Source: a virus. Taken from it: a stretch of 32,670 nucleotides of DNA. Both the position numbers and the translations under genes were made by a program. Positions 29,170 to 32,670 of this stretch are shown piece by piece; position 1 is the first letter of the stretch; each line of letters opens with the position of its first letter. The notes below the pieces were generated by a model, which searched no databases, had not been told where the DNA came from, and worked only from the letters and a program-made list of their open reading frames with translations. Where the stretch lies: the UHGV virus genome UHGV-0203498, one strand, 5' to 3'.

Positions 29170-30606
29170 ATGAGTAAAAAGATGGCACGATTCCGACGCC
29201 GCGAATATCAGAAATTGATAACTGCGTTTATCCTCAAACATGAGCGCTGCAATATATGGGCGACAATGGGATCCGGCAAAACCGGCGCGACTATGTGGGC
29301 GCTGAACAAAATGTTCCAGACCGGTATCCTGTCCAGCCAGAAGGACCGCGTACTGGTGCTGGCCCCACTGCGTGTTGCATCCGGCACCTGGCCACCGGAG
29401 CAAGAAAAATGGCGATTCCCCGCACTGCTGGTCGTAGACGGCACCGGACCGGAGAAGGACCGCATTGCAGCGCTGGAGAGCGACGCTAACGTCGTTTGTG
29501 TCAATTATGATGTAGTTGAGTGGCTTGTCGAGTATTGCGGCGACGAGTGGCCCTTTACGGTCGTTGTTGCCGATGAATCCACTAAGCTGAAAGGCTACCG
29601 CAGCAAGCAGGGCAGTAAGCGCGCCCGCGCACTGGCGGCGATTGCGCATAAGCACGTCAAGCGCTGGATTAACCTTACAGGCACACCAGCCCCAAACGGA
29701 CTGAAAGATTTATGGGGGCAGACGTGGTTCGTCGACGGTGGCGAACGTCTCGGCAGCAGCTATAAGGCATTCACCGATCGCTGGTTTATTAGCAAGCCTG
29801 TTAAGCCTGGCAGCTTCACGATGCAGCACGCTCCGTTAAAGAACTCCGAGAAAGAAATACAACAACGTCTGTCAGACGTATCCCTAACCGTTGACGCGGC
29901 TGAATATTTCGGATGCGACAAGCCAATCTATACTCCGGTTATTGTGGACCTGCCGAAGAAAGCCCGCAAGATTTACGACCAGTTTGAGGACGAACTATTC
30001 GCCGAACTGGAAAGCGGAACGGTAGAGGCGGCAAACGCCGCAGCGAAAACCGTTAAGTGTCTCCAGCTTGCATCCGGTGCCGTATATAAGGTGGACGAAG
30101 ACGGCGAACGGACCGACGAGTGGGAGAAGATTCACGATGTCAAGCTGGACGCGCTGGAGAGTATCGTGGAGGAGTTGAACGGCGCGCCGTTGCTCGTTGC
30201 ATACCAGTACAAGCATGATCTGGCACGTCTCAAGAAGAAATTTCCGCACGGCGTTGCGATGGGTAAGGGTAAGCAGGGTATCAAGGATATGGAGGCGTGG
30301 AACAGGGGCGAGATTCCCATCATGTTCGCACACCCGGCATCCGCCGGTCATGGCCTTAACCTGCAGGACGGCGGTCATCATCTGGCTATCTTCTCTGACA
30401 CGTGGAACTATGAGCACTTTGCGCAGATTGTGGAGCGTATCGGGCCGGTCCGCCAGATGCAAGCCGGACACCCCAGACCGGTATTCGTCTACATTATCCA
30501 GGCGCGCGGGACACTGGACGAACTGGTGGCAGACCGCCGCGATAGTAAGCGCGATATCCAGGATGACTTGATGGAATACATGAAAGCTAAGAAGGGGCGC
30601 AAGTGA
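29170..30606 (+). CDS. SNF2-family (SF2) helicase
   Basis: Walker A ATMGSGKTG, Walker B VVVADESTKLK, motif III LTGTPAPNG, and C-terminal helicase motifs HPASAGHGLNLQ. Confidence 0.85.
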   Translation: MSKKMARFRRREYQKLITAFILKHERCNIWATMGSGKTGATMWALNKMFQTGILSSQKDRVLVLAPLRVASGTWPPEQEKWRFPALLVVDGTGPEKDRIAALESDANVVCVNYDVVEWLVEYCGDEWPFTVVVADESTKLKGYRSKQGSKRARALAAIAHKHVKRWINLTGTPAPNGLKDLWGQTWFVDGGERLGSSYKAFTDRWFISKPVKPGSFTMQHAPLKNSEKEIQQRLSDVSLTVDAAEYFGCDKPIYTPVIVDLPKKARKIYDQFEDELFAELESGTVEAANAAAKTVKCLQLASGAVYKVDEDGERTDEWEKIHDVKLDALESIVEELNGAPLLVAYQYKHDLARLKKKFPHGVAMGKGKQGIKDMEAWNRGEIPIMFAHPASAGHGLNLQDGGHHLAIFSDTWNYEHFAQIVERIGPVRQMQAGHPRPVFVYIIQARGTLDELVADRRDSKRDIQDDLMEYMKAKKGRK

Positions 30607-31313
30607 CTATTGCAAAAATGACTATCTGGTCGTTGTTTGACGGCAGCGGCTTGATGATCGAGCGTGCTGCCGAAATGGGGCACAAATGCTACTGTTTCAA
30701 CTACTCCGAAGCCGACCACGGGTCTTACCTGGACTACCGTATTTACGGTCGCGGTATCCGATACCGTAATGAGTTTATCGATCTGGACTTCGTGGATCGC
30801 GCGATTAATGGCGATTTTGGTACGCCAGACATCATCTACGCTTTCCCGCCGTGTACGGATCTGGCGGTTAGCGGCGCGCCAGCGTTCCTGCGTAAGCGTG
30901 CTAAAGACCCAGCCTTCCAGCTTAAGGCCGTGCGCACCGCGAAGATCGCCGCTTACCTGGGTGACTTCTTCGAAGTGCCATATATGATTGAGAATCCGCG
31001 CAGTGTGCTTTCCACCCAGTGGCGCAAGCCGGATCACTCGTTTGACCCGTGGGAGTATGGTGGCTATCTGCCGGAGGGTGACGTACATCCGTTGTTCCCT
31101 GAATACATCAACGCCCGTGACGCATATCCGAAGCTGACCTGCTTATGGACCGGCAACGGCTTTCGAATGCCGGAGAAAAAGCCTGTATTCGTTGAAAAAG
31201 GGTACTCGAAGCAGTATAGTCGCCTCGGTGGCAAATCTGCCCGCACCAAATTAATCCGGTCGCTCACTCCGCGCGGCTTTGCAATAGCGGTCAATGAGGA
31301 AAATTTAAAATGA
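30603..31313 (+). CDS. Compact C5-cytosine methyltransferase-like protein (236 aa)
   Basis: Motif I-like SLFDGSGLM, motif IV-like AFPPCTDLAVSG (Pro-Cys catalytic dipeptide), motif VI-like MIENPRSV. No obvious target-recognition domain. GTG start at 30603 overlaps the helicase stop. Confidence 0.55.
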   Translation: MTIAKMTIWSLFDGSGLMIERAAEMGHKCYCFNYSEADHGSYLDYRIYGRGIRYRNEFIDLDFVDRAINGDFGTPDIIYAFPPCTDLAVSGAPAFLRKRAKDPAFQLKAVRTAKIAAYLGDFFEVPYMIENPRSVLSTQWRKPDHSFDPWEYGGYLPEGDVHPLFPEYINARDAYPKLTCLWTGNGFRMPEKKPVFVEKGYSKQYSRLGGKSARTKLIRSLTPRGFAIAVNEENLK

Positions 31314-31627
31314 CGTTCGAAACCATCGATTTTTCGGTCGCAATGACTAACCAGTTATTCACCTACGACAGCAAAACCGGCGTCATTCGTCTGAAGTCCA
31401 CTGGCTGCAAGATTGGCAACCTCAACACTGCCGATGGGGGCACACGTATCGAATACAACGGCAAAACGCTGTCCGGCGCACGCGTGGCGTGGATTATCGA
31501 GACGGGCAATACAATCCCTCCAGGATACGCCGTTGTGTGCCGACAGCGCACGCCAGGACACTACGGCAACCGCATGAGCAACCTTTACCTGGTAGACGTC
31601 GCACGCGACCCTAACTTTTATGCGTAA
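31310..31627 (+). CDS. Hypothetical protein, possibly a degenerate HNH-like endonuclease
   Basis: VAWIIETGNTIPPGYAVVCRQRTPGHYGNRMSNLYLV loosely resembles the HNH_3-type pattern; start coupled to the upstream stop (ATGA). Confidence 0.35.
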   Translation: MTFETIDFSVAMTNQLFTYDSKTGVIRLKSTGCKIGNLNTADGGTRIEYNGKTLSGARVAWIIETGNTIPPGYAVVCRQRTPGHYGNRMSNLYLVDVARDPNFYA

Positions 31628-31661
31628 ATTGGTTGCATAATCATATTGGTTGCATTATATT
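31628..31661 (+). promoter_or_regulatory. ATTGGTTGCAT motif pair forming a sigma70-like promoter (TTGCAT-N17-TATATT)
   Basis: Motifs at 31628-31638 and 31645-31655; -35 at 31633-31638 and -10 at 31656-31661. Confidence 0.45.
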
Positions 31662-31663
31662 GA

Positions 31664-31688
31664 GGGTGTCCGGTTGGACGCCCTTTTT
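31664..31688 (+). terminator. Intrinsic terminator overlapping the predicted transcription start
   Basis: Stem GGGTGTCC / GGACGCCC (one G-U pair) with loop GGTT, followed by TTTTT. Confidence 0.5.
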
Positions 31689-31707
31689 AATACCTGGAGA
31701 CTATACG

Positions 31708-32172
31708 ATGAAAATTTTACAAGAAGAGAAAAACTACTGGGCAGCACAATGCCTGGAAGCCCGTGAGCAAGCCGAACGCGCGAATGCGCTGGCGGACACC
31801 TACCTTGCGAGCTACGAAGGCGAGGAGAAGGTGCGCAAGGAGCTAGAGGAACGCTTCGATCTGCTATTCGAATTGATGGGTATTATGCAGCGCACCGGGT
31901 ACACGACCACCGTTGCGCTAAACCGCATCACTGCAGAAGGCCTGCGCGAACACTGCAAGCGGGCCGAGGAGTACGTGCGTCCGAAAGGTCGCCAGTCTTC
32001 GGTCCCCCGGAAAGATCTGGTGCTGATAGCGTGGCGGCATACATCAAACGGTGGTTATAGTACTGATATGCGCCCATTGAGCGCCGAGGAGTCAAAGCGC
32101 GTCCAGCGCGTCATGAAAACCGGCAATAAAGTCCCTTTATACGCGATAGATCCAGGTCATGCAGAAGAGTGA
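31708..32172 (+). CDS. Hypothetical protein
   Basis: ATG at 31708 preceded by GGAG at 8-nt spacing; 154 aa, helical and charged. The ORF-track start at 31633 lies inside the promoter/terminator region and is unlikely. Confidence 0.5.
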   Translation: MKILQEEKNYWAAQCLEAREQAERANALADTYLASYEGEEKVRKELEERFDLLFELMGIMQRTGYTTTVALNRITAEGLREHCKRAEEYVRPKGRQSSVPRKDLVLIAWRHTSNGGYSTDMRPLSAEESKRVQRVMKTGNKVPLYAIDPGHAEE

Positions 32173-32670
32173 GCAAAAAGATAGCTGGCGCACGCCGCCA
32201 GCGTTATTTAAACCGCTGCGCCGGAAGTACCGATTCCGATATGACATGGCGGCAAGCGATGCCAATCACCTGCTACCGCGTTACTTCACGGCAGAGCACA
32301 GCGCACTTGAGGTGGACTGGTCAGAGTTGAAGGGGTGGAAGTGGTGCAATCCGCCGTATTCCGATCCGCTGCCGTGGGTAGAGTGTGCCGCGCACGGACG
32401 CCGGACGGTCATGCTTCTGAATCAGGATACGACCACGAAGTGGGCCAAACTGGCAAGGCAAACAGCCAACCTGATTATTTTGCTGGACTGGCGGATCCGG
32501 TTTATACACGCCGTCACCGGTAAGGTCGGGCCGAGTAACAACAAATGCCAGCAATTGATAATCTTTGAAGAAGTGCCGCCAAACGGCAGCGCACAAATCG
32601 AAATAATGAGCGAAGGTGAATTAAATGAATATCTTAGTCGTCGATCGAAGCCCTCGCCAAACACACCCAA
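32159..32670 (+). CDS. dam: Phage Dam-family DNA N6-adenine methyltransferase (3' end beyond the window)
   Basis: ATG at 32159 overlaps the upstream gene's end. Translation contains WRTPPALF, DMAASDANHLLPRYFT and the catalytic WCNPPYS motif, and stays open to the window end. Not in the ORF track because there is no stop in the window. Confidence 0.8.
   Translation, partial: MQKSEQKDSWRTPPALFKPLRRKYRFRYDMAASDANHLLPRYFTAEHSALEVDWSELKGWKWCNPPYSDPLPWVECAAHGRRTVMLLNQDTTTKWAKLARQTANLIILLDWRIRFIHAVTGKVGPSNNKCQQLIIFEEVPPNGSAQIEIMSEGELNEYLSRRSKPSPNTP

Follow-up and report, generated by a model that had tools for sequence, protein, structure and literature searches.

The last open reading frame (ORF) of the virus genome UHGV-0203498, analysed here over the whole stretch of 32,670 nucleotides (hereafter "the window"), is a Dam-like gene located on the plus strand at 32159–32670. 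The gene is likely to encode a conserved orphan DNA N6-adenine methyltransferase of the phage genus Dhillonvirus, dependent on S-adenosylmethionine (SAM), belonging to Pfam family PF05869 and of the type found in phage T1 and in Stx phages. Judged by its nucleotide sequence, the window itself derives from a Dhillonvirus (HK578-like coliphage). The Dam-like gene is a core gene of this genus, where it has been annotated already, and is nothing new in kind.

Translation from the ATG at 32159 gives 170 sense codons, free of stops through base 32670, while the remaining two forward frames over the ORF are rich in stop codons. A first-pass annotation of this DNA had described a clear Dam-family protein with WRTPP, DMAASD and WCNPPY motifs, and this description was borne out. 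All three motifs are present (DMAASD at residues D29–D34, positions 32243–32260; WCNPPY at residues W62–Y67), and the protein (hereafter the window Dam) matched PF05869 ("Dam") with an E-value of 2.2e-35 (122.3 bits versus a gathering cut-off of 28.1; profile positions 5–147 of 169) and PHROG 111 ("DNA methyltransferase") with an E-value of 5.9e-54. No Pfam family besides PF05869 was matched at E ≤ 0.01; MethyltransfD12, the alpha-class family of E. coli and T4 Dam, was among those unmatched. The features that mark membership of PF05869, i.e. (i) the profile score, (ii) a motif IV of the form (N/D)PPY, (iii) W-x-T-P together with D-x-A-A-S, and (iv) a Rossmann-type class I SAM-dependent methyltransferase fold, were all found, and the assignment of the ORF to the N6-adenine methyltransferase family is supported. 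The WRTPP motif resembles the N-terminal "ETPPEVV" of M.TaqI (motif X of the gamma-class amino-methyltransferases), a likeness useful as a lead only.

PF05869 is a large family (4,870 clusters at 50% identity with E ≤ 0.001; 1,922 phage records), whose members are mostly 150–200 amino acids (aa) long. Some of them reach 500–690 aa, with a C-terminal Dam-like domain, and the window Dam weakly matches PHROG 33262 ("PAPS reductase"); this suggests that proteins fused to a Dam-like domain may occur within the family.

Comparison with the Dam proteins of T1, swan01 and Stx-phage BP-4795 revealed that D8, W10, T12, P13, D29, A31, A32, S33, N36, N64-P-P-Y-S68, R112, F115, T120 and G121 are invariant. 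When 95 diverse family members were aligned, P13, D29, N64, P66 and R112 were invariant and W10, T12, A32, P65, Y67, W95 and F115 nearly so. The ratio of non-synonymous to synonymous substitution (dN/dS), calculated pairwise against four Dhillonvirus homologues, was 0.047–0.071 (dS 0.29–0.55). An AlphaFold2 model of residues 1–161 had a pLDDT of 95.1 and a pTM of 0.91; the alignment used for modelling came from an exhaustive HMMER search, a word-indexed homologue search having yielded just 14 close relatives. Since dN/dS is low (0.05–0.07) and the structure model is confident, the gene almost certainly encodes a real, active enzyme.

The window Dam is an orphan (solitary) phage methyltransferase. 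No restriction enzyme family was found among the ORFs around the gene (PolA, VRR-NUC, SNF2 helicase, the Dcm-like protein, an HNH-like ORF, a 154-aa ORF and a small downstream ORF) or in annotated relatives. The earlier statement that orphan methyltransferases are present here without a cognate restriction enzyme agrees with this lack of a restriction endonuclease gene in the neighbourhood.

Dhillonvirus relatives and the end of the gene

The last 2.7 kb of the window matched 161 phage records at approximately 88–90% nucleotide identity (143 of the 161 over at least 80% of the region), nearly all of them Escherichia/Shigella phages of the genus Dhillonvirus (HK578-like siphoviruses). In a tblastn search, proteins with 80% or more identity to the window Dam were encoded in 158 phage records, with slur05 as the nearest (96.9%); among the matches listed, the Dhillonvirus proteins are 91–97% identical to it and are annotated as Dam. 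The genes of annotated relatives are arranged in the order DNA polymerase I, VRR-NUC, small ORFs, SNF2 helicase, Dcm-like methyltransferase, HNH-like ORF, one or two small ORFs, Dam-like methyltransferase, a 74–75-aa ORF and a phosphatase-like gene, and the order near Dam in the window is the same. The Dam proteins of slur05 (CUL02143.1; 96.9% aa identity), Oekolampad (Bas18; QXV82998.1) and Sponge (QXN70360.1) (both 94%) share position, gene order and catalytic motifs with the window Dam. Dhillonvirus Dams differ from it only in the tail: most are 161 aa long and those of slur05 and JLBYU60 169 aa, as against no fewer than 170 aa for the window Dam. Elsewhere, the window encodes major capsid, portal and terminase proteins, a primase-helicase, a DUF2800 PD-(D/E)XK nuclease, an Enc34-type single-stranded DNA-binding protein and PolA.

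The difference in length goes back to a stop-codon polymorphism. Most relatives (Oekolampad, Sponge) end in ...EYLNR-TGA, giving 161 aa, with residue 161 ending at window position 32641. The window, slur05 and JLBYU60 share a CGA codon at the next three positions, and slur05 stops eight codons further on, at 169 aa. In the protein collection, the cluster of the 161-aa form has 496 member sequences and that of the 169-aa form 62.

The last 13 nucleotides of the window (32658–32670) were unmatched in any Dhillonvirus or other phage record, and a different allele or an insertion probably lies just beyond the window end in this phage. No extension past 32670 came from scanning viral, metagenome and genome contigs for exact patterns. 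An exact-protein look-up with the upstream protein retrieved one contig (Logan SRR7892428_8168; 2,589 bp), which is an exact substring of the window (30082–32670) and has the same last base. Since this contig stops at the very same position, the window end is an assembly break. The missing part of Dam is, as the sequence comparisons indicate, a short, variable and non-conserved tail, the Pfam domain and the conserved residues lying inside the window. The gene does run off the window, as had been stated, being stop-free to its last base; the accompanying statement that its C-terminus is unknown has to be corrected, given that the relatives end at 161 or 169 aa.

Fold and target of the enzyme

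No solved homologue was found in the PDB by sequence or profile search with the window Dam; PDB matches to Mediator-31, produced by the string "WCNPPYS", were rejected as spurious. Structural comparison revealed that the nearest folds of the Dam model are those of adenine-N6 methyltransferases, with PCIF1 and M.TaqI closer than E. coli Dam. Further down came E. coli Dam (7.7), T4 Dam (7.4) and DpnM (7.3); the E. coli Dam/T4 Dam family (alpha class) is not the nearest structural relative of the window Dam.

The "group 2" enzymes of Iyer et al. (M.EcoKI/M.TaqI/PCIF1) are characterised by an N-terminal helix with a conserved residue before the core and by an N-P-P-aromatic motif IV (PMC4738411). 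PCIF1/CAPAM and M.TaqI/type I HsdM share both features with the window Dam, and its modelled fold agrees with this class. However, these proteins are only 10–18% identical to it, measure 380–750 aa and include large domains of recognition or accessory type; PCIF1 targets mRNA caps. Because the fold class is nearer to PCIF1/M.TaqI, "Dam" is to be read here as a functional label and not as homology to E. coli Dam. E. coli and T4 Dam (alpha class, MethyltransfD12) probably share the chemistry of the window Dam and perhaps its target, with N6-methyladenine (m6A) formed at GATC. According to the model, the 161-residue protein is a minimal catalytic core, consisting of the N-terminal W-x-T-P helix, D-x-A-A-S, NPPY and a Rossmann-type sheet with no separate DNA-recognition domain, and DNA is apparently recognised by this core alone. 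The non-specific methyltransferases Hia5/Hin1523 were also considered as relatives and rejected; in the literature they are grouped with the relatives of E. coli Dam that carry FxGxG and DPPY motifs, and not with PF05869.

Of the characterised family members, T1 Dam (M.EcoT1Dam; AAP49979.1) is 31% identical to the window Dam (E-value 7e-18), and the Dam of Stx-phage BP-4795 (CAD88834.1) is 36% identical (E-value 5e-24). M.EcoT1Dam is reported to modify GATC (m6A), and M.Btr190III, which is 35% identical to T1 Dam, methylates GATC with considerable off-target activity (PMC4996451). The Dam genes of phages VT-2 and HP1 were cloned as Dam methyltransferases. Since characterised members of the family methylate GATC, this sequence is the best guess for the window Dam, and by analogy we hold it moderately probable that the enzyme targets GATC, possibly with some off-target activity.

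T1, swan01 and KarlJaspers Dam belong to the same Pfam family as the window Dam, carry the same motifs and are also located after helicase and VRR-NUC/resolvase genes. T1 Dam is longer (237 aa), with an N-terminal extension of ~55 residues and an insertion of ~15 residues, both absent from the window Dam. The Dam of Stx/lambdoid phages (BP-4795; VT-2 type), also of this family, is of nearly the same size (175 aa), but that of BP-4795 is located in the nin region of a temperate phage, beside ninB, whereas the window Dam lies in the replication block of a lytic phage.

The window contains 117 GATC sites (observed/expected 0.83–0.93) and 139 CCWGG sites (~1.05), and neither sequence is avoided. 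GATC sites form a local cluster only at 30780–30944, inside the Dcm-like gene (4 sites in 165 nt), and are evenly spread elsewhere. A strong depletion was seen for CTAG, with 10 sites in the whole window (observed/expected 0.26).

Three other views of what the ORF encodes were weighed against the same data. That it is a truncated, decaying or inactive remnant, or a gene disrupted by stop-codon loss, might be read from the absence of a stop in the window, from the change of TGA to CGA and from the unmatched last 13 nucleotides; yet slur05 and JLBYU60 share the CGA codon and merely end eight codons later, all family-invariant residues are kept, dN/dS is low and the model is confident. This view can hardly be maintained, decay or truncation of the gene being excluded for practical purposes. 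The enzyme might also methylate RNA instead of DNA, as does PCIF1/CAPAM, its closest solved structural neighbour. This is highly improbable, considering that T1 Dam and M.Btr190III, of the same sequence family, methylate DNA at GATC, that the structural neighbours ranking next all act on adenine in DNA, and that the genomic context is one of DNA replication. A relaxed or non-specific adenine methyltransferase, acting in many sequence contexts and giving broad protection against adenine-sensitive restriction enzymes, would fit a 161-aa catalytic core devoid of a target-recognition domain and the marked off-target activity of the T1 Dam relative, and non-specific phage adenine methyltransferases do exist (Hia5/Hin1523, OS31_p25). 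The Hia5-type enzymes, however, belong to the E. coli Dam-related family and not to PF05869. Moreover, Dhillonvirus remains sensitive to the restriction-modification (RM) panel of BASEL, and a promiscuous enzyme should mask the respective sites (7 EcoRV, 1 EcoRI and 63 EcoP1 sites in the window). To our knowledge, adenine methylation of its own sites blocks each of the six BASEL RM systems. Because of the sensitivity of Dhillonvirus, full promiscuity of the enzyme is unlikely, and relaxed specificity in general appears quite improbable.

Neighbouring genes

The features identified in and around the Dam-like gene are summarised in Table 1.

Table 1. Position and supporting evidence of features at the Dam-like gene and upstream of it (window coordinates).
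Feature	Position	Strand	Evidence and remarks
Dcm-like C5-cytosine methyltransferase, 236 aa	30603..31313	+	53% identity to KarlJaspers Dcm; PHROG 757, E 2.2e-83; FPPC84 and E130-N-P
HNH-like ORF, 105 aa	31310..31627	+	PHROG 99 "HNH endonuclease", E 2.4e-15; Pfam HNH_3, E 0.27 (non-significant)
Terminator-like hairpin, GGGTGTCC-GGTT-GGACGCCC followed by TTTTT	31664..31688	+	Sequence; RNA fold of 31620–31710; between HNH-like ORF and 154-aa ORF/Dam pair
154-aa ORF upstream of Dam	31708..32172	+	ORF list; PHROG 10530, E 3.2e-96; no Pfam domain
Dam-like N6-adenine DNA methyltransferase ORF (PF05869)	32159..32670	+	Translation, Pfam, PHROG 111, Dhillonvirus identity; codons 1–161 conserved, 162–170+ variable tail
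W10-R-T-P-P14, N-terminal "TP" motif	32186..32200	+	W10, T12, P13 invariant or nearly so in 95 family members
D29-M-A-A-S33, motif I-like, end of first beta strand, putative SAM-binding region	32243..32257	+	D29 invariant, A32 nearly so (95 sequences); strand E26-29 in model
N64-P-P-Y67, catalytic motif IV of amino-methyltransferases	32348..32359	+	N64/P66 invariant, P65/Y67 nearly so (95 members); follows model strand E60-63
Start of downstream small ORF (MNILVVDRSPRQTHP...)	32626..32670	+	Other frame, ATG at 32626, overlaps Dam tail; slur05/Oekolampad homologues are 74–75-aa hypothetical proteins
CGA codon at usual TGA stop of Dhillonvirus Dam (stop-codon polymorphism)	32642..32644	+	Two DNA alignments

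The Dcm-like gene starts 1556 bp before the Dam ATG. Its product aligns over the full length with the Dcm of KarlJaspers (Bas06) (E-value 2e-85; both proteins of 236 aa) and keeps the catalytic Cys and Glu, so that what had been called a C5-methyltransferase-like gene does encode a homologue of C5-cytosine methyltransferases. The genomes of KarlJaspers and phage K42 are 95.4% identical, and the Dcm gene of K42 (711 bp) was shown to add 5-methylcytosine at CCWGG of the multicopy single-stranded DNA (msDNA) of retron Ec86, with C82, E128, K175 and K176 needed for this (bioRxiv 10.1101/2023.08.16.553469). Dcm of this K42/KarlJaspers type triggers the retron (Ec86/Eco1). C82, E128 and K175 of the K42 protein correspond to C84, E130 and K177 in the window, whereas K176 is replaced by Leu. 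The Dcm-like gene, which has a dN/dS of 0.018–0.028 against its Dhillonvirus homologues, belongs to a family present in 1,527 phage records. The protein matched no Pfam family even at E ≤ 10 (DNA_methylase, PF00145, was unmatched). Domain-based annotation pipelines would miss this family, which lacks a Pfam match despite including a validated enzyme.

The first-pass annotation correctly placed Dam after the C5-methyltransferase-like gene and the HNH-like ORF, all within 1.6 kb, but its view of the two methyltransferases as a two-enzyme DNA modification module was not upheld. The pairing is one of adjacency only, as two ORFs and the terminator-like hairpin separate the genes. In KarlJaspers, 6.4 kb lie between the Dam and Dcm homologues, which are encoded on different strands, whereas the two genes of the window are neighbours on the plus strand; T1 carries Dam only, without Dcm. 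The Dcm-like gene is an independently inherited neighbour and not a coupled partner. The same family pair is found in another small siphovirus, Pantoea phage AAS23, in which both Dam (ORF34) and Dcm (ORF52) are encoded; digests indicate Dam- and Dcm-type methylation of the virion DNA, a contribution of the host not being excluded (PMC8004638). The AAS23 Dam is 30.6% identical to that of the window, and the phage differs in genus and host.

The stop codon of the 154-aa ORF overlaps the Dam start by 14 nt. Because of this overlap the two genes are probably co-transcribed and translationally coupled, in a small transcription unit of their own that closes the replication block. Both PHROG 10530 and RefSeq label the 154-aa ORF as "DNA ligase". 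This name is doubtful and seems to have spread from one annotation to the next, since the ORF lacks any Pfam domain and falls far short of the size of known ligases. On the other side of the ORF, a direct repeat (ATTGGTTGCAT; 31628–31638 and 31645–31655, 17 nt apart) is located upstream of the terminator-like hairpin. A simple terminator scan did not list this hairpin, and a promoter/terminator consensus scan gave no enrichment over shuffled sequences. The segment 31628–31688, which separates the Dcm/HNH genes from the 154-aa ORF and Dam, may have a regulatory or terminator function.

Role in the phage

Given its position and the overlap with the upstream ORF, Dam would be made alongside the replication proteins. 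It would then add methyl groups to freshly replicated phage DNA, GATC being the most probable site. The amplifying phage DNA may in this way be kept fully methylated whatever the level or status of host Dam, which is rate-limiting for high-copy DNA, and would be protected both from GATC-cutting enzymes that are blocked by m6A and from attack on un- or hemimethylated DNA. The Dcm-like enzyme may act likewise on cytosines, the characterised homologue having CCWGG as its site. An anti-restriction role of Dam is plausible but hypothetical.

Several points weigh against such an orphan, T1-type GATC methyltransferase with a protective role. The NCBIfam model TIGR01712 (phage_N6A_met) was matched with 87.5 bits (E-value 6.9e-25), below its equivalog cut-off of 97.05, which makes the window Dam, on sequence, a homologue outside the equivalog threshold. 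No recognisable target-recognition domain is present, leaving the reading of GATC by the window Dam unexplained, and specificity cannot simply be transferred at 31–36% identity to the characterised enzymes. In BASEL, Dhillonvirus phages were moderately to considerably sensitive to six RM systems (EcoKI, EcoCFT_I, EcoRI, EcoRV, EcoCFT_II and EcoP1_I), and in the related Drexlerviridae methyltransferase genes and restriction resistance showed no simple link. The host, E. coli, already has both Dam and Dcm, and the selective benefit of the phage gene is non-obvious. Phage Dam and Dcm activity triggers the retrons Sen2 and Eco1/Ec86, a potential liability; by analogy, the Dam and Dcm genes may thus carry a cost besides their presumed benefit. 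Finally, a search of the literature yielded no experiment on any Dhillonvirus Dam, but just annotations and RM-sensitivity phenotypes.

Some of these points would fit a methylation whose purpose is mainly internal to the phage, i.e. epigenetic, serving as a packaging mark, in the timing of replication or transcription, or in shielding replicating and recombining DNA from host MutH. The host supplies Dam already, no anti-restriction phenotype is evident in BASEL, and the gene is placed in a replication/recombination block beside PolA, VRR-NUC and the SNF2 helicase (in T1 the order is helicase, resolvase, Dam). However, no GATC-rich control region was found in the window, the sites being even except for the single four-site cluster, and such a function is compatible with a protective orphan methyltransferase, not exclusive of it; as the principal role it seems unlikely. 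A restriction-modification system, in which the Dam-like and/or Dcm-like gene would be combined with the HNH-like ORF as the nuclease, is suggested by the location of this HNH-family ORF (see its PHROG 99 match) between the two methyltransferase genes. The pairing expected of a type II system is nevertheless lacking, since the sole endonuclease candidate is this small ORF with a non-significant HNH signature. With a length of only 105 aa, it reads C77-R78 where the HNH_3 profile expects the catalytic His (a His occurs six residues later). In addition, the terminator-like hairpin stands between it and the Dam operon, it is annotated as a homing endonuclease in relatives, and a restriction system of its own would bring no obvious gain to a lytic phage. 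We give this possibility almost no credence.

For the conserved orphan methyltransferase that we prefer, the importance beyond correct annotation is slight, as the gene has already been annotated in a common coliphage genus. The modest points of interest are (i) a large family without a solved structure, (ii) apparent recognition of DNA by the core only, and (iii) strong purifying selection on both methyltransferase genes in a phage of a Dam+ Dcm+ host. It is conceivable, if rather unlikely, that the 161-residue enzyme, lacking a target-recognition domain, has a different or relaxed target, or that its value lies in the interplay with defences that read methylation (retrons responding to msDNA methylation, attack on unmethylated DNA). 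If such an interplay is real, the two conserved genes, Dam and Dcm, would serve Dhillonvirus as a tool of counter-defence while also acting as a trigger.

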